Assembly (NCBI GenBank): GCA_001600815.1
Contig: BCKZ01000007.1
Coordinates: forward strand, 124,001-188,000
DNA length: 64,000 nucleotides
Direction: 5' to 3'
Source: Alloascoidea hylecoeti
Lineage: Eukaryota
The number at the start of each line of letters is the position of its first letter. Positions within the stretch are counted from its first letter, which is position 1. Of the stretch, positions 4,855 to 61,483 are shown in pieces. Position numbers and translations under genes: made by a program. The notes below the pieces were generated by a model. The model was not told the origin of the DNA. It was given only the letters and a program-made list of their open reading frames with translations, and made no database searches.

Positions 4855-6546
4855 ATGAAGACAACCTCTTTGATCATTCCCGCCGCTTTGGCTTCGACCG
4901 TTGCTGCTCTTGTTATACCACAACTTAACAATGATGCGTTGATTGCTTATCAACAAGGCCCCCAAGCTGTCCTAGCAGAACCAAAGCTTTTAAAGGACAT
5001 GATTCCAAAGAAGGCCGCTGATGCTATCCATAAATCCTTCGATAAAACGAAAGAAGCGATAGGTTCTTTAGAAGATAAGGCTGCCCCATTCGTTACCTCA
5101 GTTCACGCATTAAAGAATCTCATTCCCCACTCTTATATTATTATCTTAAAGGACGATATCAATCAACAAGACTTATCATCACATGTCGAGTGGGCTCAGA
5201 CTTTAAATGATGAACAAGTTGGTAGTTTGTTGTCGTCCGACCCAAACAATACATTTTTTGATATAACAGGTATTAAGGCAGATTCAGAAGCTAAGGATAA
5301 AAAATTGGGCGGTATTAATCATGTGTTTTCTTTACAAGGCTTCACCGGTTATTCTGCAACATTATTACCGGACACTATTGAGCAAATTAGAAGACATCCA
5401 AGCGTCTTGATGGTGGAACAAGATTCCGTTGTTTATGCAAGCGAGTTTGATACTGAAAAGGGCGCACCATGGGGTCTTGCTAGAATTTCCCATCGTGAGA
5501 AGTTAAGTTTAGGTACTTTTAGTAATTATTTGTTTGATAATGAAGGTGGTGAAGGTGTTACATCATATGTTATCGATACAGGTATTAACGTTGATCATGT
5601 TGATTTTGATGGTAGAGCCAAGTGGGGTAAAACAATTCCTCAGAATGATCAGGATATTGATGGAAATGGTCATGGAACTCATTGTGCAGGTACAATTGCT
5701 TCTAAGACTTATGGTGTTGCCAAGGGCGCAAACGTTGTTGCTGTTAAGGTTTTAGGTACAAATGGTTCTGGTTCAATGGCTGATGTTGTTAAGGGCGTTG
5801 AATGGGCTGCTAATTCACATATTGCTGCTTCAAAATCAAAGAAGAAGGGATTCAAAGGTTCAACTGCTAATATGTCTCTTGGTGGTGGTAAATCCCCATC
5901 ATTAGATAATATTGTTAACGCTGCTGTCAGCGCTGGTTTACATTTTGCAGTCGCCGCAGGAAATGAAAACCAAGATGCTTGTAACTCTTCTCCAGCAGCA
6001 GCAGAAAACGCTGTTACTGTTGGTGCTTCAACATTAGGTGATGATAGAGCATACTTTTCTAACTTTGGTAAATGTGTTGATATTTTTGCACCAGGTTTAA
6101 ATGTTTTATCAACATATATTGGTTCTCAATACGCAACTGCTTCATTATCAGGAACATCTATGGCATCTCCTCATATTGCTGGATTATTATCATATTTCCT
6201 CTCTTTACAACCTGAAACAGATTCAGGATTTGCTACAAGTACAATCACACCAGCACAACTAAAAAAGAATTTGATTGCATATGGTACTCCAAATATTCTT
6301 AAAGATGTTAATTCTGATACACCAAATATTTTAGCATTTAATGGAGCTGGACAAAATTTGACTTCATTCTGGTCGGGTCATAAATCTGATGTTGAAGAAG
6401 TTAAGAATATCAATATCAATGAAGATAAACGAATTTCATTAGAAAGAAAATTAAATGAAAAAATCTTACCATTAACTAATAAAATCATTGAAGAAGTTAA
6501 TGAATTAGTTGATGAAATGAGAGAAGAATTTAATGGAGTTTTATAA
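4855..6546 (+). CDS. PRB1: Vacuolar subtilisin-like serine protease B (cerevisin)
   Basis: Signal peptide, I9 propeptide, and S8 catalytic motifs VIDTG, HGTHCAGTI and GTSMASPH. First ATG is at 4855 (the track starts at TTG 4849). Confidence 0.95.
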   Translation: MKTTSLIIPAALASTVAALVIPQLNNDALIAYQQGPQAVLAEPKLLKDMIPKKAADAIHKSFDKTKEAIGSLEDKAAPFVTSVHALKNLIPHSYIIILKDDINQQDLSSHVEWAQTLNDEQVGSLLSSDPNNTFFDITGIKADSEAKDKKLGGINHVFSLQGFTGYSATLLPDTIEQIRRHPSVLMVEQDSVVYASEFDTEKGAPWGLARISHREKLSLGTFSNYLFDNEGGEGVTSYVIDTGINVDHVDFDGRAKWGKTIPQNDQDIDGNGHGTHCAGTIASKTYGVAKGANVVAVKVLGTNGSGSMADVVKGVEWAANSHIAASKSKKKGFKGSTANMSLGGGKSPSLDNIVNAAVSAGLHFAVAAGNENQDACNSSPAAAENAVTVGASTLGDDRAYFSNFGKCVDIFAPGLNVLSTYIGSQYATASLSGTSMASPHIAGLLSYFLSLQPETDSGFATSTITPAQLKKNLIAYGTPNILKDVNSDTPNILAFNGAGQNLTSFWSGHKSDVEEVKNININEDKRISLERKLNEKILPLTNKIIEEVNELVDEMREEFNGVL

Positions 6547-7660
6547 ATTAATTGATATGTAGAACATATCAAAACAATAATTATTATTATAGCTATTCAT
6601 AATTTAAAATGATTAATATAACTTATAATGTGATATGAGAGATGTACGAATGAGGGTGTGGTTTTTGTTATCATTTTTATTTTGATTTATACAGTTTACA
6701 TAATTTAATACACTATTATGGTTGTCAAGAACTTTTTACGAGTTTATTGATTGACGCCAATTTGATGGTCAATATTAATTATACATTAATTACACTTAAT
6801 TTCAGCTATCTAGAGTATTGAATATTGAATATTCGGCCATTTGATAAAAGATTTATTCGCTCATTTTAAACTAAATGACGCGTGGGGGACGCAAATCCGG
6901 AAGAAATCTACCAAACTTACAGATTACATGGTTTATATAAATTTGTTCTGAAGATATTATATTCAGCTAGTTTAGTATATTTTTAAAAAAGAAATCAGAT
7001 TATCAAGTATTTGATCTTCACAAGTGGGTTCTTTAATCTTAATAGACAAGTCGTGATAGTAGACAAGTTTCAGACAGTTTATTAATTTTGGTTAAGTTAC
7101 TCATTATTGAGTTTTCGACTACAGAGTGTGAGAGCTTGTGTTTTCTTTTTGGTACCTGTTGTATCCATTTATCTTTTATAACCACTTTCACGTCATATAA
7201 ATGGTTGAGAACGTGATACGATTGTGGTCTAAATTTTAAGTGTAACGACAATATTGTTTCTGCTTTGTTGTAAAAAATGAAACCGAAACTTTCGATGATA
7301 TGAATATAACTCTTGTGCATAGTTCAAATAACTGCACACATAAATTTGGCCATATATATTATATATATTCGGTAGGAAGTTTATAGTTATAAATAACCGG
7401 TGATTAATGTTCTATAAAAATGAGAAAGATAAATACACTGGATAGTAGATCTAGATACTATTAAGCAATAAAATTTTAATTTGGATATAATGTGCTATGA
7501 CTAAAATCAAATAATTGACTTTATAATTGTAAAATTTTAAAAGAATGAAATGTATATTTTTTATAATTAATAATAGATTATCTAACATGAAATCTTGATA
7601 AATTTATCAGAATATAGCAAGGGCAATACCAATACCAGTATGCCGCTGAGATTATCTGCC

Positions 7661-7778
7661 TTAACAGGTGCAAGTGCAAACACATTCAACACCAGGGGGG
7701 CAAGTACAAGTGCAAGTACAAACGCATTCCTTTTCTGAACCAGAGCTTGAAGTGCAGGTGCAAACACAGTTACCACTG

Positions 7779-7815
<37 letters not shown>

Positions 7816-7894
7816 GAGTACCCTCATTTTTTGGGGTATACTTAGTAGCACAATCTTGTTGTGAGGTGCAAGAGCAATCAGTAGTACTAGCCAT
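7661..7894 (-). CDS. Metallothionein-like Cys-rich protein MT-A (77 aa, 15 Cys, poly-Thr spacer)
   Basis: MASTTDCSCTSQQDC...(T)12...CVCTC...CVCTCTCTCPPGVECVCTCTC*. Shares its N-terminal CSCTS with the two neighbours, plus a shared promoter block. Confidence 0.75.
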
Positions 7895-9075
7895 TCTTAA
7901 TAAGTTATGTTATGAACAGAAGTTGAAATAATTTGAAGAAAAAGTTCGGAAAATGTTTTTGCTTTTGTTTATCTTTATTTGATTTAATTAAATAGCTTTA
8001 GATTAACTAACTATAAATCAATATTGAAAAGATGAAGAAACAGAAAATTAAGAGGATTTTGATCCCTTTTTAAATTCAAAAATTAACTCATTTACAACTA
8101 ATCTAACCAGTAATAATGGATAATTTTCATGAATCATCAATATTAATAATCAATGTTTTCTATATATTTATAGGTTATTCAATTTTGACTAATGTTATAT
8201 TCTTCCGGATTTGGTAGTTTATATACTATATACATATGCAACTACAACATTAGAGTAATATTTGACTTTATGCATATGCATATGGTATATCTCTTACTAA
8301 ATATGGCTATATCTGCATATGAATGGTCTATCATTGGTTCATAATCGATTAAGAATTGTCATAAGTAACTGAAGTGGCGAAACTTTATCTAATCCTCATT
8401 CAGTTATCTTTATGAACAGTTACAAATTAAATTTTTAAATAAATTTAAAAATGATATCATTATTAAGTTTGAAGAACTGAATGTCAAATTTGATAGATTT
8501 CTAGAATCAGATAAGAAAAATATAGAAATTCTGAGAAAGATTCAGAAGTTCCTGCGAATAAAGAGCCACTAAATAATCCTACTTCAACACAAAAATGATA
8601 AATTTGTTTATGAAGTTCTTAATATTTATAAACTTATACATAGCTACAAGTCTAAATCCTTTTGATCAAGGCCAAAATGAAACATCTCTAGAAAGAATGA
8701 ATAAATAAATACGTATTTTTATAGGGCCTATATTTAGCTATATTTATTTCACGTAAAGCGGTCGACCGGTAGTACCCGTTAGTTTACATAACTTTTAGAT
8801 TATCTCACGGAACCTAGGCATAAATTTATAACTGAAATTTGATCATTGGACAGACAATGGAAAGTGATCCATAGTAAGGAGTGGAAAATACACGAATGTA
8901 AATAGTTTCTACTCATTTGTAACATTAGCTTATTTCATATAATATAATTTATAACTTAATTTTAGAAAAACAAAAACAATAAACAGATGTTAAGTAAGAT
9001 ACCAGTATCAGCCACCTTATCAGCCACCGTATAAACCTGATCATAAAGCTTAAATATCAATAATTCCCTATCGAT

Positions 9076-9165
9076 TCAATGTTTCTTTGTGCAGCAAGAA
9101 CAAGAGCAAGGGCAACTAGAAGCACAATGACATTCCCTTGATGAAGTGCAAGAGCAGCCAGCCAT
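9076..9165 (-). CDS. Small metallothionein MT-B (29 aa, 9 Cys), not in ORF track
   Basis: Manual translation gives MAGCSCTSSRECHCASSCPCSCSCCTKKH*. AAA-ATG start context; TATAAAAAGG about 150 bp upstream. Confidence 0.88.
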   Translation of the reverse strand: MAGCSCTSSRECHCASSCPCSCSCCTKKH

Positions 9166-10185
9166 TTTGAATAAGTATAGTATTAATAAATTGAGGGTTG
9201 AAGTGTTTTAGAAGATAGCTTAAAAGGCTTTTTTGTAATTAATTTAAATCAAATTTCAAATGAATTGATTTTTGAGGAGATGAAGAATTTGAAATAGAGG
9301 AGGATTTTAGATCCTTTTTATACCAAGGGATAAGCTAACTAAAAGCGATCAGTATGATTCATTTTATATTTAATTCTGATGAAAAAATTAATATTAATCT
9401 AATGTATAAATTCCTCTAGTTTAAAAGTGCTTATCATGAATTCATGCAATCATAAAGCTGTCATATCATCACAATTTCATATCTATCAATATAATTATAT
9501 TCAAAGAATTGGACCTAATAAATATGCATATTCACTGATGAATCTTACCTGGTACCGGTCATGATTGTGATATAGATGATGACCATATCTGGACAATAAA
9601 ACCAGTATCATATATTTATGTGATCATGTTATTATCATGTTATTCCTATGGGATACATTCATGGTTTTTATTGTGATGATTGGAGCGGTCTGATTTTTCT
9701 TATAGATCTAGAGAATGTGTCTCTCTTTGTTTGGTTTTAGGCAATCGATCGTGCTCGACTTTTTCTACTTGTAATTGGGTGAAGCTATCAACAATACAAA
9801 CGTCGTAGTCCATTGTTTGAAGATTTTGATCTGAAACCCATATGAATCACCAGAGCTTATAATCAACACAGAATTGATCTACTAATAATATGGTATATCA
9901 CAACTACAAGTTTATACATTGATAATATCACTTTTGAAATTAACTTTATGAAGCATAAATAATATTTATTAAAAGCAAACTACGTTAATAATTTTCTTTT
10001 TTTGTTTTAGCTAAATCCACAAATCCACATAATCCAGAATCATTAATATAAAAAACTAACCATTAATTTGTATTTGAATATCGAAGATAAATATAATTAA
10101 AATATGACCAAATCGATAATTATAGAAATTGAAGTGACCATTTAAACAGTTGAGATGTTTAATTTAAATTTGAGAATCACTATAA

Positions 10186-10275
10186 CTAGTGCTTGTGACC
10201 ACAGCAAGTGCAATCGCAATTAGCAGCACAGTGACAGTCCTTTGATGAAGTGCAAGAGCAAGTAGTACCAGTCAT
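10186..10275 (-). CDS. Small metallothionein MT-C (29 aa, 8 Cys), not in ORF track
   Basis: Manual translation gives MTGTTCSCTSSKDCHCAANCDCTCCGHKH*. AAA-ATG start context; TATAAAAGG about 130 bp upstream; clear paralog of MT-B. Confidence 0.88.
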   Translation of the reverse strand: MTGTTCSCTSSKDCHCAANCDCTCCGHKH

Positions 10276-11984
10276 TTTAAATACCTATAAGTAATTGTAT
10301 ACCAAGTTTATGAGTGAATAAATGTTTTTTAAAACTTATTTATAATGAATTTTGTTATTGATATTGATAAAAAGAATGCGAATTCAGAGAAGATGTTGGC
10401 TCCTTTTATATTCATAACTCGGTTTAGATTGTATATATACGACTATAGATGATCTGTAGCTATATCTATATTACATAACTTGATTATACAGGTAAGAAAC
10501 GTTTATATTCTATGATTTAACCGATCATCTAGCACTTAAGCGCTAGCTCATATCTGGATTCCATTTCCATCTCCATTTCCATAATATTCAGTTAGTAAAT
10601 ATCAAATTTCAAAATTATATAATAGATGATCAAGTATTACGCCGGAAGATTGTTTCATTTTGAAAAACATATTTTGGTAATTAGTATGAAAATTTGTATT
10701 AGATCTAGAGCATTCCATATGCAAATAGGCTATAAGTCTTATATCTAATTAGGTGTAGTGGTATACAATATACAGAATTAATTATACATCATAATAATAA
10801 TCATGAGATATCTAGCTATATTACCATAATTTTAATTGGGTTGGGAAGTGTATGACATATTCAATAGCAATGTTGAGTATGATACAGTTTTGCACTTTTA
10901 TTTCGCCACATTGGAGAACCTATTTCGTCACTGAAGATAAAGAAATTAGGTATTCAGAGTCTTACAAAAATCACCAACATCCAAACATCTCAATTCCCAA
11001 CAACTCAACAATTAACAATTGGTTGTTCTATATAATTTACATGAAGATAAACTTTATATGTATAATAATTCCTAAATAGCGGTTACGATTGCAATTGAAG
11101 ATGATTATGATCATGATAATAAAATTTCTAGTATATCTCTGATTGACTACACATTTGTAAGTCTAGACTTTCAATTGTCGATCATCTCATGATCATGAGT
11201 TAATAATTATACTAAACCCCGCAGCCGGTTATTTGATTTTCAAGGTAAGTAGTTGATATTTAATGTGAAAAGTTCATAACCACTATATTGAAGATAATTA
11301 ACCATATATCATGTTACCTATAATTAGATTAAATTTGTTGTAAATCTTATTGGAAATGTAAAAGTTCATTTAATTTGGTTAGATAATTAAGACCATGTAT
11401 ATGAGCATATGGGCCTATATTCATAGTAATATTTAGCATTAAATACTACATTTTTATATAAATATACTAAACGCTGATGTTAACTAACAGCCTAGATTGC
11501 CAGAACATTTCAAAATTGAGCCATCATCATTTACACAGTTAATCAATCGATAAATAAGTAATCGGCATCAGTTGAAACAATAGAAAACTGAAGATTAAAG
11601 TTCTAGATTTCATGTAGAATGGAATATTCCATCAGTTCCGTTATACTATCATTTTCATAATTCCGTGGTACTCTCTCGAACAAATTATTAAATTATTTGG
11701 TTTCGATCTAAAGGTGATAAGTATATGGACTTAAATTATATGAACTTGGAAAATGATATTTTAAATATGGAATCCCAATAGGTTGAAATACCAGTATGTT
11801 TTTTATCAACACCCCAAGAATCTTATATAAGCCTGATGCTGTATGGCATTCATAATTTATGCAGGGACACATATATATTTGAACCCTTGCATCTGAATAT
11901 AAAATTGGACCAATCATAGCATCTGCTTACCAATTTTTGGCCAACATGTATTCCATACTTCCTCACTTCGAATCGTTATTCAAC

Positions 11985-12935
11985 ATGTCCATCGTTGCAA
12001 TCAAGAAAGCCGTTGAACATATAGCTTCATCAAGTTCAAATGATCAATTGAAGTCCAAAGCAAGTACTTCAACTAGCTATGGTTCTTTGGATGTTACCCA
12101 GGTACAATTGTCTCCAGATTCAGAAGCTAACATAATTGGTAATAATTCAACCTCATCGAACGCGTCTTCATACAACTATATTGATGATGAACCAATAAAT
12201 AATGATCAAAGCTGGTCTTTACCATTCTTTTCGAAATCAGTTGACCCAAGAGTAATGTCAGATGTTATCATTGGTCTTTCTGATGGCCTTACTGTTCCAT
12301 TTGCTTTAACTGCTGGTTTAAGTAGTCTTGGTAATTCAAAACTTGTTATTACTGGTGGACTTGCAGAACTTGTATCTGGTGCAATATCAATGGGTTTAGG
12401 TGGTTATTTAGCAGCAAAATCAGAAGAAGAATTTTATGAATCTGAAGTCTTAAAAGAAAAATTAATTTATAATAATAATTTTAATAATAATAATAATCAT
12501 GATGATTCAAATTTAAAAATAATTGAAGTTTTAAATGATTATAATATAACAGATAAAACAATTAATTTTTTTATAAAAGATTTAAATAAAAATCCAAATA
12601 AATTAATTGATTTTATAATTAGATTTAATAAAAATTTAGAAAAACCAACTGAAGGTAGAGAATTTACATCAGCATTAACAATTGGTTTATCATATTTTTT
12701 TAGTGGTTTTATACCTTTAATTCCTTATTTTTTTATTGATGATGTTAAAAATGGTTTAATTTTTTCTGTTTTAATAATGATGATTACTTTATTTTGGTTT
12801 GGATGGATTAAAACAATTATTTCAATTGGACCCGATTCAAGTAATTTAACAAGATTTTCAAATGCTTTACAAATGGTTGTTGTTGGTGGTTGTGCTGCTG
12901 CTTCTGCTTGGGGTTTGGTTAAACTTATCCAATAA
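11985..12935 (+). CDS. CCC1: Vacuolar Fe2+/Mn2+ transporter (VIT1/Ccc1 family)
   Basis: N-terminus MSIVAIKK resembles yeast Ccc1; signature DPRVMSDVIIGLSDGLTVPFALTAGL; ELVSGAISMGLGGYL. Confidence 0.95.
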   Translation: MSIVAIKKAVEHIASSSSNDQLKSKASTSTSYGSLDVTQVQLSPDSEANIIGNNSTSSNASSYNYIDDEPINNDQSWSLPFFSKSVDPRVMSDVIIGLSDGLTVPFALTAGLSSLGNSKLVITGGLAELVSGAISMGLGGYLAAKSEEEFYESEVLKEKLIYNNNFNNNNNHDDSNLKIIEVLNDYNITDKTINFFIKDLNKNPNKLIDFIIRFNKNLEKPTEGREFTSALTIGLSYFFSGFIPLIPYFFIDDVKNGLIFSVLIMMITLFWFGWIKTIISIGPDSSNLTRFSNALQMVVVGGCAAASAWGLVKLIQ

Positions 12936-14467
12936 TTTAATGATTTTGTGCTATACAATTATTAATTAATATCTAACTTATTTCATCTTCCTTCTTTTTG
13001 TTATATCTTATATATATAGTGGCATACTATAACTAGCTATTAAAATTAATAATATAGATTTTAGAGATTTGAGAGATTTATTAAACTTTCAAGATGAAGA
13101 GCTATAAATTTTATAGCTAGCTATCGTATAAATAAGGGTCGAAGTGTAAGATATGGAAAATGCAATCGATTAAAGACTCATTGAAAAACCGTATATGTGT
13201 AAATATCCAGTGAAAGGATCAGATTATTTGATTATCATTTAATTTTATAGTTAATCATCATTATTAGTTCCAGACGATTTTAAAATCTTTCCGAAATACT
13301 AATAAGATGATGGCATTAAATTATTAATAAATAAATGAATAAATAAACAAATCATCATCTCTATTGATGGACGTAGCAGTCATGGAAGTTAACTGGTTTC
13401 TAGAAGTATGTAATGTCAGCAATATACAGTTTGATAAAATAAATTTATAAGTATAATCTTCTGAAAATCATTATATATGATATATCTATAGGTGTAGTAC
13501 GTGCGTGAATTAACGAATGAGGTTAGCCAGTTAACAAGGAAACTGAGGGAAAGGGATAGTTTGCAGGATGGACATAAGGAATAAAATCGGTTAGGGCCTA
13601 GGTATAATGAAATAGTCATAACAATAGAAATTATTGTTACAGCACTAACATTTATACAGTTTCACCCATGGGTATGGCCTAAGGTTTGCCAAGATGTGAG
13701 CAACACTTAGCTGTAGGCGCCTCTCGGATTTTCATGTTAAATTTCACTCAGAATTCCGCTATTTACAGTGATAGTTTTTTTCTCATGATAGGAGTCATTT
13801 CTTTGAATGAATTTATCTATCAAAATGGACATTACAAAAATGATTGTAATTAATTACCTTGTAAATCTATTTTTTGAAATACAGTATATAGTACTTCCAC
13901 TTAATTTCGGCTACAATCGAACTAAATATTTCGTCACCTTGTGGCAGGTTCAGAACAGAATCCATAGAACCAACAAAATCATATAGTGCTTATCTACGCA
14001 AACAGAATAGTTGGTTAGGCTCATCAATAAATGATTCATATATCATAATCAATGTTCAAAGTCTGCCAAAAACTTCTAAATACTACTATGGTTATTTTAA
14101 TTTTATATGTAATGTATAAAATCACCTTGATAGTTCAAATAGTATTAAAAACAATAAATAAACAAAACTCAAAATGAAATTAAAAAGTTAATCTTCTCAC
14201 CACTCAGAACCCATTCAACTATGGCATGCGCTAGATTGGTGGGGCAGAAGGGGAGTATTTTAAGTATTTTAGTTTTAACGAAAAGAAATCATTGAAATGA
14301 AAATTTTATATTTATAGTAATAGTATATATCAGTCCGGTATCAGATGTACCTATTAGTTTGATAGCCCTAATTAAAGAATACTGATTGAAATATTGTAGT
14401 TTTATTTGTAGTCTAGTTTATGTAAATATGTACTATTTATTGGATGCACATACGTATTGGTTAAAAT

Positions 14468-15577
14468 TCATTTACTTTTTTCTTCATCTTCATCATAAGG
14501 AATTTCTGCTAATGGTGTTAATCGATATAAATGTCGTCTTCCACCAAGCCAGTCATATGAAGCAGAATGAATAGTCCTCCTATTATCCCAAACTGCAACA
14601 GTCCCTTCTTCCCACTTTACCCTAATTTGAAGATCAGTTGTATTACCAGTGATGTCATATAAAAATTTCAATAAATATTCAGATTCATCTTTTTTATAAC
14701 CTTCAATGTATCTTGTGAATGCTCTATTAACAAAAAGTGCCTTTTCTCCAGTTGATGGAATTGTTCTTACAATTGGATGGAAGCTAGATATTTCGGGTTT
14801 ACGAACAACACCTCCTCTGCTAATGGCACTTTGAACTTGTTCATGACCAGAATGCAAAGCTCTTAAACCTCTTAAACGTTCTCTAAAAGCAGGTGATAAT
14901 CTTTTATATGCTTGAACTGTGTCTGCATAAACAGTATCACCACCAGTATAAGGTCCTTCTAAATCAACCAAGAATGTAGTGCTAGGTGGTTGTGTTTCAT
15001 ACGAAACGTCAGAATGCCATCCACTACCTCCAGCATATTCAGATCTAAGTAATTTATCTTCATATAAATCATCAGAATTGTATCTATGAACCAAATGAAT
15101 TTGTGGGTAACCTGCTGGTGCACCAGAAGTAGGATGAATATGTTGTGGTCCAAAATAATTGGCAAACTTAATTGAATCATCAATTGATAATTCTTTAAGA
15201 TCTTGATTTCTAAAAGCAACAACACCTCTTTGTGCAACAAACAAAGATAACTCATCTTTTGCTTTATCGGATAATTGTGATAATTGAATTCCACGAACTT
15301 CAGAACCAAAATGTGGTGATATATTAGTTTTTGAAAATTCAACACCTTTTGGAAATAAATTTGGAAATGATGGATCAGCTCTTGTACCTGGATCAACTCG
15401 ATTATGAATTGGTAATTGTTTTTCAGAAACTGCTGATTTATCCCAAACTGGTAAATAATGAGGATATTTTGCGCCAACTTGATCTTCTAATGGTAATTCT
15501 AATGTTATACCATCTTTTGAATAAGATTTTGGCTTTTCAATTGTTTGTGGTTGTGGTTTAGTGTCTACTGCAGGCAT
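14468..15577 (-). CDS. JLP1: Fe(II)/2-oxoglutarate-dependent sulfonate dioxygenase (TauD/Jlp1 family)
   Basis: WHSDVSYE (HxD motif), GGDTVYAD and WDNRRTIH. Family is certain; strict orthology is not. Confidence 0.88.
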   Translation of the reverse strand: MPAVDTKPQPQTIEKPKSYSKDGITLELPLEDQVGAKYPHYLPVWDKSAVSEKQLPIHNRVDPGTRADPSFPNLFPKGVEFSKTNISPHFGSEVRGIQLSQLSDKAKDELSLFVAQRGVVAFRNQDLKELSIDDSIKFANYFGPQHIHPTSGAPAGYPQIHLVHRYNSDDLYEDKLLRSEYAGGSGWHSDVSYETQPPSTTFLVDLEGPYTGGDTVYADTVQAYKRLSPAFRERLRGLRALHSGHEQVQSAISRGGVVRKPEISSFHPIVRTIPSTGEKALFVNRAFTRYIEGYKKDESEYLLKFLYDITGNTTDLQIRVKWEEGTVAVWDNRRTIHSASYDWLGGRRHLYRLTPLAEIPYDEDEEKSK

Positions 15578-16161: not shown

Positions 16162-16701
16162 ATGAAGATCAAAAGGCAAAAGCAATCTCTGTTACCACGT
16201 AATATCACCAATACTAGTAACACCAAGAAAATAAAGAAAGATGAGGAAATAATCAAGAGTAAAAATTCAACAAGTTTAGGAAGCGATCTAGATAAAAAGG
16301 GAAAAGGGAAGGGGAAAGCTACTTTTTTATCAACTATAGATCATCATGATATACAAGAAACTAAAGAAACATGTGGTGATCCAAACCAAGAAAAATATCA
16401 CTTAATATTGAAAAACTTGTATGGATTGAGCTCAAGTTATAGACCTATACCCTCAAATATACAGGAATCGATGGACTCAGCGTACAATATAGAATCGCAA
16501 GAAAACACCATCCATTTAATATTACGTCAGTTTGATCTCATAGCAAGATATGGTCCAACAGTGGGGTTTACCAGATTGAAAAGATGGCAACGAGCTGAAA
16601 AACTGGGATTGAATCCGCCTGAAGACATCAAAAATATCTTGGAATCAAAAGAAGCTCAGCTGTACAACTCATACAAGCAACCATATTCTTTTTATAATTA
16701 G
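16162..16701 (+). CDS. POLD4: DNA polymerase delta subunit 4 (p12/Cdm1)
   Basis: C-terminal LRQFDL..RYGP.VG.TRLKRWQRAEKLGLNPP signature. First ATG at 16162; CGCGAAA cell-cycle-like box at 15985. Confidence 0.85.
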   Translation: MKIKRQKQSLLPRNITNTSNTKKIKKDEEIIKSKNSTSLGSDLDKKGKGKGKATFLSTIDHHDIQETKETCGDPNQEKYHLILKNLYGLSSSYRPIPSNIQESMDSAYNIESQENTIHLILRQFDLIARYGPTVGFTRLKRWQRAEKLGLNPPEDIKNILESKEAQLYNSYKQPYSFYN

Positions 16702-18933: not shown

Positions 18934-20073
18934 ATGACTTCAGGAAACCTACCATTAATTACGGAACAACAATTGGAAGTTTATAGAAACCAAGGCAGAT
19001 TTATAGTAACCCTACAAAATAGACAGGTTTATGATGTTACTGATTTCTTATATGATCATCCCGGTGGTGATGAAATAATCAAAGAATGGGAAAATAAAGA
19101 TGTTACTGATGTAATGAGAGACTTAGATTCTCATGTTCATTCTGAATCTTCTTATGAAATGATGGAGGATAATTATTTGATTGCATTACTAGCAAATGAT
19201 GTTGAGATTGAAAAATTCGAACTAGCTAATAAATTTTCAGGACATGAAGGAGCACCTGGATTAAAGAAAAGAAAACCTTTTGAATTAACTGGTATTTCAT
19301 GTGCTGAAGAAATGGAAATTAAAACAGATTATGTTAGTGATTATAAAAAGCATCAATTTTTAGATCTTAACAAACCGTTATTTTTACAAGTATTATATGG
19401 TGGTTTTGATAAAGATTTTTATATTGAACAGATTCATCGCCCAAGACATTATGGAAATGGATCAGCTCCAATCTTTGGAAATTTTTTAGAGCCATTGTCC
19501 AAAACTCCATGGTGGGTTGTACCAACTCTATGGCTTCCGGTTAATGGTTATATTTGGTTTTTGGCTTCAAAAGGTTTAACACTATCCCAATTATTAACAT
19601 GCTTTATTGGAGGTTTATTTATATGGAGTATTCTTGAATATACAATGCATAGATTCTTATTCCATATGGAAAAGTATCTACCGAATAATGGACTTGCCTT
19701 GGCGTTGAATTTTCTGTTACATGGGGTACATCATTATTTACCAATGGATCGTTATAGGTTAGTTATGCCACCTGCTTTATTCATAATTCTAGCAACTCCA
19801 TTTTTCAAATTAGCACATGGTGTATTACCATTTTATTGGGCAAATGGAATATTTGCTGGTACTACCTTAGGTTATATTGGCTATGACGTTACTCATTATT
19901 TTTTACATCATAAGAAATTACCACAATTTTTAAATAATGTGAAAGAAAATCATTTAGAACATCATTATAAAAATTTTGATTTAGGATTTGGGGTTACTTC
20001 AACTTTATGGGATCATGTTTTCAGAACATGTTTCCCGTTTTATGAAAATATTAGTACTATAGCTAGTAACTAA
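18934..20073 (+). CDS. SCS7: Sphingolipid fatty-acid alpha-hydroxylase, copy 1
   Basis: Cytochrome b5 HPGG motif plus His boxes HRFLFH, HGVHH, HYFLHH and HLEHH. Confidence 0.93.
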   Translation: MTSGNLPLITEQQLEVYRNQGRFIVTLQNRQVYDVTDFLYDHPGGDEIIKEWENKDVTDVMRDLDSHVHSESSYEMMEDNYLIALLANDVEIEKFELANKFSGHEGAPGLKKRKPFELTGISCAEEMEIKTDYVSDYKKHQFLDLNKPLFLQVLYGGFDKDFYIEQIHRPRHYGNGSAPIFGNFLEPLSKTPWWVVPTLWLPVNGYIWFLASKGLTLSQLLTCFIGGLFIWSILEYTMHRFLFHMEKYLPNNGLALALNFLLHGVHHYLPMDRYRLVMPPALFIILATPFFKLAHGVLPFYWANGIFAGTTLGYIGYDVTHYFLHHKKLPQFLNNVKENHLEHHYKNFDLGFGVTSTLWDHVFRTCFPFYENISTIASN

Positions 20074-22021: not shown

Positions 22022-23167
22022 ATGTCAACACAAAGTTTACCATTAATAACACAACAACAAATCGATAGCTATCGCGATTCTGGAAGAATAGTTGTTACTC
22101 TAAACAATCGGCAAGTTTACGATGTTACTGATTTCTTAGATGATCACCCAGGTGGTGGTGAGATCATTGAAGAATGGGGTGGAAAAGATATCACTGATAT
22201 TATGGGAGATGTTTACTCTCATGTTCATTCTGAATCAGCTTATGAAATGATGGAGGATAATTATTTAATCGGCTTATTATCAACAGATGCCGAAAATAAA
22301 CATTATGGGATTGGTGAATACTCAAATGATAAAGAATCGAACACAAATGTTAATGACGGAATAACTGAAAGAAAACCTTTTGAATTGACCGGTATTTCAT
22401 GTGCAAAAGAAATGGAAATCAAAACAGATTATGATAGCGATTATAAAAAGCATCGATTTTTAGACCTCAAAAAACCATTATTGATGCAAGTTTTAAGAGG
22501 TAATTTCACCAAAGAATTCTATTTAGAACAAGTTCATCGTCCAAGGCATTATGGAAAAGGATCTGCACCAATTTTCGGTAACTTTTTAGAGCCAATATCA
22601 CTAACACCCTGGTGGGTTGTACCAACTCTATGGCTTCCAGTTAATGGTTATATTTGGTATATTGCATCACATGGATTATCAGCACCTAAATTATTCACAT
22701 GCTTTACTGGAGGTTTGTTTATATGGACTCTTCTTGAATATTTAATGCATAGATTTTTATTCCATATTGAAAAGTATTTACCTGATAATAGTATTGCATT
22801 TACAACTCATTTTCTATTACATGGATTTCATCATTACTTACCAATGGATAAATATAGATTGGTTATGCCACCAACATTGTTTACAGCGTTAGCATTCCCA
22901 TTCTGGAAATTGGCTCATTTAATCTTCCCTTATTATTGGGCAACCGGTATTTTTGCCGGTGGTTCATTGGGATATATTGGATATGATGTTATCCATTATA
23001 GTTTACACCATAAAAAGTTACCGCAATTTTTAGATGATCTAAAAGAAAATCATATGGAACATCATTATAAAAATTATGATCTAGGGTATGGTGTTACTTC
23101 TACTTTATGGGATCATGTTTTTCATACTTGCTTCCCATTCTTTGAACCTCTACAAAAGACCGCATAG
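22022..23167 (+). CDS. SCS7: Sphingolipid fatty-acid alpha-hydroxylase, copy 2
   Basis: HPGG plus HRFLFH, HGFHH, HYSLHH and HMEHH; colinear paralog of 18934..20073. First ATG at 22022. Confidence 0.93.
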   Translation: MSTQSLPLITQQQIDSYRDSGRIVVTLNNRQVYDVTDFLDDHPGGGEIIEEWGGKDITDIMGDVYSHVHSESAYEMMEDNYLIGLLSTDAENKHYGIGEYSNDKESNTNVNDGITERKPFELTGISCAKEMEIKTDYDSDYKKHRFLDLKKPLLMQVLRGNFTKEFYLEQVHRPRHYGKGSAPIFGNFLEPISLTPWWVVPTLWLPVNGYIWYIASHGLSAPKLFTCFTGGLFIWTLLEYLMHRFLFHIEKYLPDNSIAFTTHFLLHGFHHYLPMDKYRLVMPPTLFTALAFPFWKLAHLIFPYYWATGIFAGGSLGYIGYDVIHYSLHHKKLPQFLDDLKENHMEHHYKNYDLGYGVTSTLWDHVFHTCFPFFEPLQKTA

Positions 23168-60902: not shown

Positions 60903-61483
60903 TTATTGTTTATAATTAGTAAATGATAATTGATAAATGATAAATGATAATTGATATGTAATTGAGAAATTGAGAAATTAAAAGTTTGAATTGGAGTGAT
61001 GAAAAGTAACAAAAAGAGACAACCAACAGCAATAAAGAAAGAAGAAACACTACTCAATAAAATGAATGGACGAACAAAATAGAATAGCAACAAAAAAGAG
61101 ATGAACCAAAATTAAACCAATTGATTTTGTTTTACTTAATTATTTTCAATTTTCAATTTTCAATTTGAATTTCCAGTTTAAAACAGATGAAGAAAAAGAG
61201 GAAGAGAAGAAGGAAGAAGGAAGAAATTTTAAAAATAAAAAGAGGAGTATAAAATTAAAAAATAAAAAATAAAAAATAAACATCAAACATCAAACACTAA
61301 ACATTAAACCTTTTTTTTAGAATTTCTTTGAAGTTCAGAAAGGATGAGAAAAACCCTGTTAAAAATGTTAAAACCTGCAATTTTTGGAATCCATGCAACG
61401 AATATTATGCAGAGAACTTCCACAGCGTTCTTCGACAAATTTGCATTTTATTCTGTGTTTATTTGTTTGCTTTCAGATGGAAG

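Follow-up and report, generated by a model that had tools for sequence, protein, structure and literature searches.

Three closely spaced, cysteine-rich open reading frames (ORFs) in the budding yeast Alloascoidea hylecoeti raise the questions of whether they are genes, what their products would do, and whether their position head to head with CCC1, a gene of the vacuolar metal-importer family, is of any consequence. They lie in a 64,000-nucleotide stretch of contig BCKZ01000007.1 (assembly GCA_001600815.1, positions 124,001 to 188,000; hereafter the window) and are referred to as MT-A, MT-B, and MT-C. We consider it likely that the trio represents tandem-duplicated metallothionein-type genes, that the short peptide family of MT-B and MT-C leans towards zinc and cadmium, and that the adjacency to CCC1 is incidental.

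Three cysteine-rich candidate genes in one intergenic region

A subtilase gene (4855-6546) borders the trio on one side and the VIT1/CCC1 gene on the other. Its coordinates, peptides, and spacing were as given in the original prediction, which was made from the sequence alone and described three minus-strand ORFs about 1.0-1.2 kb apart; the gaps between them measure 1181 and 1020 bp.

7661..7894, minus strand: MT-A, 77 amino acids with 15 cysteines (Cys; 19% Cys)
9076..9165, minus strand: MT-B, 29 amino acids with 9 Cys (31% Cys) and a C-terminal histidine (His)
10186..10275, minus strand: MT-C, 29 amino acids with 8 Cys (28% Cys) and 3 His

These ORFs are real and beyond chance. Among the 628 ORFs of at least 15 amino acids in the window, MT-B and MT-C ranked first and second in Cys fraction and MT-A fourth. 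With an ORF of at least 20 amino acids, at least 19% Cys, and three CxC motifs as the criterion, no trio-like ORF appeared when the 5.4-kb intergenic region, where three were observed, was simulated 1000 times with an order-2 Markov model, and a single one arose in whole-window simulations (1/100). The start of the coding region is homologous across all three genes over 34 nucleotides at the DNA level, and MT-B and MT-C are 86% identical over 56 nucleotides. The leaders upstream are poor in G and free of ATG for 197 (MT-A), 197 (MT-B), and 140 (MT-C) nucleotides, while ATG-free gaps of at least 140 nucleotides account for only 6.8% of 3525 intergenic ATGs. A scan of positions 6500-14500 against Rfam returned zero matches.

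The peptides, being small and high in Cys arranged in CxC and CC motifs, show sequence features of the metallothionein class. None has a hydrophobic N-terminus on inspection, which fits a metallothionein without a signal peptide, and MT-B and MT-C contain no aromatic or large aliphatic residue (MT-A has one Tyr and four Val). They had been said to begin with CSCTS; that motif is present in all three but sits after a leader of 3-6 residues.

A wider family of short peptides with constrained cysteines

At least six peptides of 26-29 amino acids in this genome, MT-B and MT-C among them, form one family; four lie on other contigs, each of 26 amino acids with 8 Cys:

L173:171-251: paralogue on contig C5
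L180:5062-5142: paralogue on contig C1
L181:5008-5088: paralogue on contig C11
L182:4980-5060: paralogue on contig C43

These dispersed paralogues were first found by scanning the genome for Cys patterns: the initial, strict pattern gave nothing outside the window and looser patterns gave the four. Their leaders are alignable. Candidates on C14, C16, C20, C10, and at C11:1.3k and C43:66.5k were set aside, with no metallothionein-like ORF at any of them. Six matches came back from a DNA search with one dispersed paralogue: the query, its three dispersed counterparts, and a pair of relics on C43; no drifted coding copy was among them. The relics (G000:C43:55003-55169 and 61079-61238) have kept the family core promoter and leader and lost the coding sequence, one of them having a start codon followed immediately by a stop.

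Across 23 aligned columns of the six short peptides (the two-residue insertion of MT-B being excluded), all 8 Cys are invariant and 2 of the 15 other columns are. Counts pooled over the 15 non-independent pairs of members gave 0/240 differences at positions 1-2 of Cys codons and 164/450 at those of other codons, while the third position of Cys codons showed 33 synonymous differences in 120. MT-B and MT-C alone behaved alike (0/16 versus 9/30 at positions 1-2). Cys codons are thus preferentially conserved from one paralogue to another, one of the points named beforehand on which the prediction could fail, and the idea of an easily missed, lineage-specific metallothionein-like family held up, now extending past the trio. 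As to the proposal that a CHC motif and a C-terminal His contribute ligands, a His lies within the last two positions in 6/6 short members, consistent with a Zn/Cd ligand; CHC, the second CxC, occurs in just 2/6 and is not a family constant, and within the trio both features are confined to MT-B and MT-C.

Promoters of the family

Core promoters could be aligned across the trio, and MT-A, MT-B, and MT-C are, judged by their sequences, tandem paralogues with homologous core promoters. An A at position -3 was found in 7/7 family genes, against 30/57 background genes.

8015..8072, minus strand: MT-A core promoter, a TATA-like element and pyrimidine tract, matching that of MT-B at 71% over 58 nucleotides
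9263..9320, minus strand: MT-B core promoter, TATA box at -157
10402..10410, minus strand: MT-C TATA box (-135), aligning with the TATA regions of MT-A and MT-B
8234..8320, no strand assigned: five ATATGC hexamers and a Yap-type site (8294-8300) upstream of MT-A
10592..10598, no strand assigned: Yap-type site lying 323 bp upstream of MT-C, with CCC1 about 1390 bp away

The Yap-type sites upstream of MT-A and MT-C constitute a weak lead to possible regulation. The consensus for the copper regulator Ace1, HTHNNGCTGD (PMC6337107), which is of the Saccharomyces cerevisiae type, occurred 0, 1, and 0 times in the 800 bp upstream of MT-A, MT-B, and MT-C (0.41 expected), and its GCTG core likewise 0, 1, and 0 times (2.8 expected). 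None of the Mac1, Aft, Zap1, Cbf1, or STRE consensus strings was present upstream of the trio.

Other motifs were assessed in three held-out promoters by criteria written down beforehand. ATATGCA, with a corrected P of 0.007 in four promoters, was in only one of the three held-out promoters and was rejected. ATCAT was replicated (19 versus 7.8 expected) in held-out promoters that are homologous to one of the discovery promoters, and TCATGA was found in 7/7 family promoters against 21% of 207 background windows. A doubled TCATGA motif, TCATGATYATGA, had 171 forward matches genome-wide versus 17 for a control; 14 of the 17 loci read fell between genes, and these neighbours, the metallothionein itself excepted, were of mixed function. 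TCATGA/ATCAT was dismissed as a metal-specific element, given the homology of the held-out promoters to the discovery one and the genome-wide abundance of the doubled motif. TCATGATYATGA looks like a general DNA element or a simple repeat.

MT-A as a rearranged member

The architecture of MT-A differs from that of its neighbours. An N-terminal half-unit, CxC-x5-C, is followed by a 27-residue Cys-free spacer with a run of 12 threonines (Thr), and then by 12 Cys in CxCxC(xCxC) blocks. The N-terminal unit lacks its fourth Cys, and the protein lacks His.

7664..7771, minus strand: three internal 42-nucleotide (14-residue) repeats making up the Cys-rich C-terminal part of MT-A
7779..7820, minus strand: trinucleotide repeat corresponding to the MT-A Thr run

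Alignment shows MT-A to be, at the sequence level, a rearranged and internally amplified form of the MT-B/C unit. A single-sequence structural model drew beta-strands at a predicted local distance difference test (pLDDT) score of 61 and matched no PDB fold. An overlapping 81-amino-acid, Leu-rich frame (7582-7827) was taken to be a shadow of the Thr repeat and discarded. We also discarded a likeness, through CTxSxxC, to the Thr/Cys antifreeze proteins of beetles, which carry a signal peptide and many 12-residue repeats: it appears as one motif only and is missing from the four distant members, no antifreeze Pfam family matched at E values up to 10, and no antifreeze fold matched.

Resemblance to known metallothioneins

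The arrangement of Cys in metallothioneins from Neurospora and Agaricus, CxC-x5-CxC-x3-CxC-x2-C (PMC4755600), is present exactly, plus one extra Cys, in MT-C and the four distant members. MT-B fits the first six Cys of this family-8 spacing only, being the family skeleton with a two-residue insertion that bears one additional Cys, and MT-A fits neither pattern. When a six-member profile was compared with 177,635 PDB sequences, 1T2Y ranked first at a non-significant E of 0.63, in a gapless alignment over 24 residues with its 7 Cys aligned; its sequence is that of the N. crassa entry tabulated in PMC4755600.

Searches for relatives elsewhere were blank. Those with MT-A found no homologue in the ESM Atlas and 0/50 candidates in a word search; the word search with a five-row family alignment gave 0/2. 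HMMER with a 31-position profile over 1.84 billion representatives returned nothing, and a pattern scan of metagenomes gave 154 stretches, none confirmed. Among the matches listed by a metagenome scan for the Cys skeleton (163 rows, 123 loci), simple repeats predominated: 155 rows were of low diversity and the remaining 8 included no short clean ORF, so that the scan as a whole was uninformative. We regard these blanks as weak evidence, since we judge the libraries poor in eukaryotic peptides below 30 amino acids.

Family 8 is described for non-yeast fungi (PMC13107397, PMC4755600). The host has a low GC content, and the named relatives of the window CCC1, among the 120 matches listed, are all budding yeasts of the Saccharomycotina (47-63% identity). 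We therefore describe the trio as family-8-like and do not file it as a member, because the homology is non-significant, the spacing is incomplete in MT-A and MT-B, and family 8 has a different taxonomic scope. The short peptides resemble the Cu-metallothioneins of N. crassa and Agaricus bisporus (family 8, Fungal 1, 1T2Y) in length (25-29 amino acids), in Cys spacing, and in a terminal Lys of 1T2Y that aligns with the family profile. They differ in the eighth Cys that creates a terminal CC, in candidate His ligands, in a budding-yeast host, and in being multigene. A metallothionein reported as cadmium-specific with a His ligand, and with a part for His in Zn versus Cd binding, is probably that of Heliscus lugdunensis, whose Cys spacing and C-terminal His suggest a likeness. 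The Heliscus protein, too, is a small fungal peptide with eight Cys (PMC13107397).

Amplification of a Neurospora-like unit is known from Cryptococcus CnMT1/2 and Tremella TmMT, and a C-P-P-G block of MT-A resembles the TmMT unit (PMC4755600); two-unit forms of 63 amino acids exist in the A. hylecoeti genome as well. Unlike CnMT1/2 and TmMT, MT-A has just 77 amino acids, a Thr-run spacer, and denser CxCxCxCxC blocks, and its likeness to them is likely convergence. The trio shares with the CUP1 array of S. cerevisiae and the MT1-4 pairs of Yarrowia lipolytica (PMC13107397, PMC6337107) the clustering of yeast metallothioneins, but the Cys patterns are unrelated, the copies of the trio have diverged, and its promoters lack a cluster of Ace1-type sites.

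Other metallothionein-like genes in the genome

The genome has 8 loci with, between them, 12 or more intact genes of metallothionein-like type, a lower bound. In addition to the short family and MT-A, these comprise:

L017:2546-3460 (contig C6) and L018:2173-3854 (contig C17): palindromic, divergent pairs of identical two-unit genes, 63 amino acids with 16 Cys each
L015:1605-1838 (contig C1): DUF7871 peptide, 77 amino acids with 12 Cys (E 3.7e-19)

Identity between the C6 and C17 pairs is 83%, and the first half of their peptides aligns with the short MT-B/C family. An Ace1-like site, C[AT]GGCTG, is conserved in both arms of both pairs and absent upstream of MT-A, MT-B, and MT-C. The DUF7871 peptide is one that we take to resemble Candida Crd2-type metallothioneins, a resemblance that suggests a metallothionein-type function for this DUF. 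A single Cys unit apparently underlies 11 of the 12 genes, occurring once, twice, or in repeat-expanded form.

Three copper-fist transcription factors are also encoded (L002/L026, L003, and L004). One reads as Mac1-like with C-terminal Cys clusters, one as Ace1/Haa1-like with a full Cys cluster, and the third is missing most of the Cys cluster.

Proposed function and metal preference

We propose that the members of the trio would be metallothionein-type genes, each with its own transcript, and that a gene was duplicated in tandem together with its core promoter to produce them. MT-B and MT-C would be single-unit peptides with family-8 Cys spacing, the extra Cys of a terminal CC, and a C-terminal His, and MT-A would have been built from this unit by rearrangement and internal amplification. 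As cytosolic peptides they are expected to be unstructured until they fold around d10 metal ions via thiolate clusters, one small cluster each in MT-B and MT-C, with MT-A binding more metal. Peptides of this kind are known to bind Cu(I), Zn(II), or Cd(II) through clusters of thiolates (PMC13107397). That MT-B and MT-C work like small fungal metallothioneins is very likely in our estimation; for MT-A our confidence is lower. If they are metallothioneins, Zn/Cd is the metal preference we narrowly favor, Cu(I) is a lesser though serious possibility, and a mainly redox role has only a small chance of being right. Zinc or cadmium buffering would thus be somewhat likelier for the trio than copper detoxification, a lean based on the additional (eighth) Cys, a His at the C-terminus, and the lack of an Ace1-like site. 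Because that site is present in the promoters of the 63-amino-acid pairs and absent from the short family, a division of labor may exist in which the pairs are copper-induced detoxifiers and the short, His-tailed family serves as a Zn/Cd buffer or in basal thiol protection.

Several observations weigh against this interpretation. Finding members by their Cys pattern inflates Cys invariance, and the comparison involves paralogues only, no homologue having been found outside the A. hylecoeti genome in any search. The PDB match is non-significant, a two-sequence profile found nothing, and Pfam searches assigned no family to any member. MT-A, without an orthologue or similar paralogue, is the least secure of the trio, and part of it consists of simple repeats of a type also present in noncoding DNA here. 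Regarding copper, there is a strict Ace1 match at -287 of MT-B, and among the three held-out members a strict match occurs in one and CTGGCTG, at -683, in another (the single occurrence of C[AT]GGCTG among the four distant short members, 1/4); moreover, a missing S. cerevisiae-type consensus does not exclude copper induction.

Some of these points feed alternative explanations. Were all three ORFs due to chance, or untranslated, their absence from a collection of 15 billion proteins (exact look-up of MT-A, MT-B, and MT-C, with 4 of 7 neighboring sequences present) and the lack of outside homologues would be expected, but the simulations, the six paralogues with Cys-specific constraint, and the promoter and leader features make this extremely improbable. 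It is also unlikely, though less so, that MT-A alone is a copy in decay or under no selection, with microsatellite expansion filling its open frame, or else a non-metal Thr/Cys beta-meander. Decay would account for the Thr run and hexamer-like CTCTC repeats, for the lost fourth Cys and His, and for a family that discards dead copies, as the two C43 relics attest; yet the frame is intact with mixed TGT/TGC and ACT/ACC codons, the core promoter and the 197-nucleotide ATG-free leader are retained, and amplification of a 7-Cys unit has precedent in Cryptococcus and Tremella (PMC4755600). The beta-meander takes its support from the modeled strands, at pLDDT 61, of a model that matches nothing in the PDB. 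A further explanation, rather unlikely but the one to be taken most seriously, is that all three are ordinary Cu-thioneins that detoxify copper, as the Neurospora protein does; tandem amplification would then serve dosage, and copper would induce the genes via sites departing from the S. cerevisiae consensus. The eight Cys and terminal His are set against it insofar as they recall the Heliscus protein and its reported cadmium specificity, as are the scarcity of GCTG cores upstream of the trio and the conservation of the Ace1-like site in the 63-amino-acid pairs instead. In its favor are the family-8 spacing with 1T2Y as the top PDB match, the copper-fist factors in the same genome, and the fact that most characterized fungal metallothioneins are Cu-thioneins (PMC13107397).

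Unannotated, tandem metallothionein genes are ordinary in themselves. What sets the metallothionein-type genes proposed here apart is Neurospora-type spacing in a budding yeast, a group for which classification lists other families (PMC13107397, PMC4755600), and a series of one-unit, two-unit, and repeat-expanded forms with differing promoter signatures, in which module number and His could be compared with metal preference; the short peptides of the series can be synthesized.

The neighboring CCC1 gene and its duplicate

The gene facing MT-C encodes a member of the CCC1/VIT1 family (PF01988, 197 bits versus a curated cut-off of 28.1; VIT1, E 4.5e-58). We placed its start at 11985 in agreement with the protein-collection version, which leaves 1709 bp between the starts of MT-C and CCC1, as anticipated for the divergent intergenic region of about 1.7 kb.

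11985..12935, plus strand: CCC1/VIT1-family transporter, 316 amino acids; ORF open from 11946
11111..11198, no strand assigned: three copies of the TCATGA hexamer about halfway from MT-C to CCC1, a motif common genome-wide and not metal-specific

Two VIT1 genes exist in this genome, the second located at G000:C3:1116355 and 55% identical to the window copy. In a tree of 40 rows, comprising both copies with 21 named proteins and 17 unnamed ones chosen from the 120 matches listed, the two were sisters at 97/76, which is below the starred threshold, and the placement of long rows is unsure; the window CCC1 had the longest end branch (1.01 versus 0.64 for the C3 copy). It aligns over the full protein with plant VIT1 (6IU3, E 2.6e-44), the transport-site motifs matching up, and its cytosolic part carries an insertion rich in Asn. 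Vacuolar import of Fe and Mn is the role of Ccc1 (PMC8003315), and promoters of iron-regulated cccA/CCC1 genes bear CSAAT-N12-RWT and Yap-type sites (PMC7144946, PMC3353947). The C3 copy has the former at -197 and the latter at -396, while in the window CCC1 such sites occur only at -1165 and -1393. Hence, the window protein is like the Ccc1/CccA/VIT1 importers of Fe and Mn in its PF01988 domain and alignment to 6IU3, and unlike them in being a long-branch second paralogue with the Asn-rich insertion and without proximal HapX/Yap-type motifs. These features would fit a duplicate freed from iron control.

Incidental adjacency or a metal-handling cluster

The original prediction went on to suggest co-regulation of the trio with CCC1. 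Here the evidence weighed more against than for, as 0/4 other short-family loci adjoin a metal gene, no family-specific element is shared, and 1.7 kb has room for two promoters; co-regulation is in our view distinctly unlikely, and the head-to-head position is more likely incidental than co-regulatory. The alternative can be framed as an addition to our preferred explanation, in which the duplicated, fast-evolving CCC1, off iron control, would share a bidirectional upstream region with the trio and so link metal binding in the cytosol to uptake of Mn, Zn, Cd, or Fe by the vacuole. The longer-branched window copy among the two VIT1 genes, the proximal iron-type motifs retained by the C3 copy against distal ones in the window, and the transport-site motifs aligned with 6IU3 are all compatible with this, and the C6 metallothionein-like pair does lie near a metal transporter gene:

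L174:5900-7228 (contig C6): cation-efflux (CDF) zinc-transporter gene, tail to tail with the C6 pair at 2.8 kb

Still, metal genes were seen near 0/4 of the other short-family loci when ORFs of at least 150 amino acids were read over 10-20 kb, and a metal transporter flanks one of seven metallothionein-like loci once the window locus, chosen for its neighbor, is excluded, for which a rough chance figure is 7-13% assuming 30-60 metal genes in about 6000. Only one motif, TCATGA(TCATGA), is shared with the middle of the intergenic region; it is common genome-wide beside unrelated genes, and no TCATGA lies within -650..-150 of CCC1; the sister grouping, too, is subject to the threshold and long rows mentioned above. 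In the literature covered, which leaves subscription journals mostly outside, we found no metallothionein cluster adjoining a vacuolar CCC1. On balance, such a coupled cluster is improbable. Even less credence is due to the fullest version, in which a neofunctionalized second CCC1, off HapX/Yap5 control, and a His-tailed, Neurospora-type array would jointly handle Zn, Cd, or Mn through one bidirectional region, with one Cys unit split between copper and non-copper regulons. With its diverged second CCC1, this genome does lend itself to an inexpensive test of whether chelation and vacuolar import are clustered in yeasts.

Other observations in the window

Elsewhere in the window, two similar, co-oriented genes (18934-20073 and 22022-23167) encode what we presume to be SCS7-like fatty-acid hydroxylases fused to cytochrome b5. 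A gene of the DNA polymerase delta subunit 4 family (PF04081) is located at 16162-16701; S. cerevisiae is not known to have this subunit. The first 4.8 kb are gene-free and contain, as seen by eye, a degenerate 60-bp sequence twice (about 590-650 and 2850-2905), and may hold decayed mobile-element DNA. Finally, a TauD-family dioxygenase gene (14468-15577) adjoins CCC1; the TauD-like JLP1 of S. cerevisiae responds to sulfur shortage.

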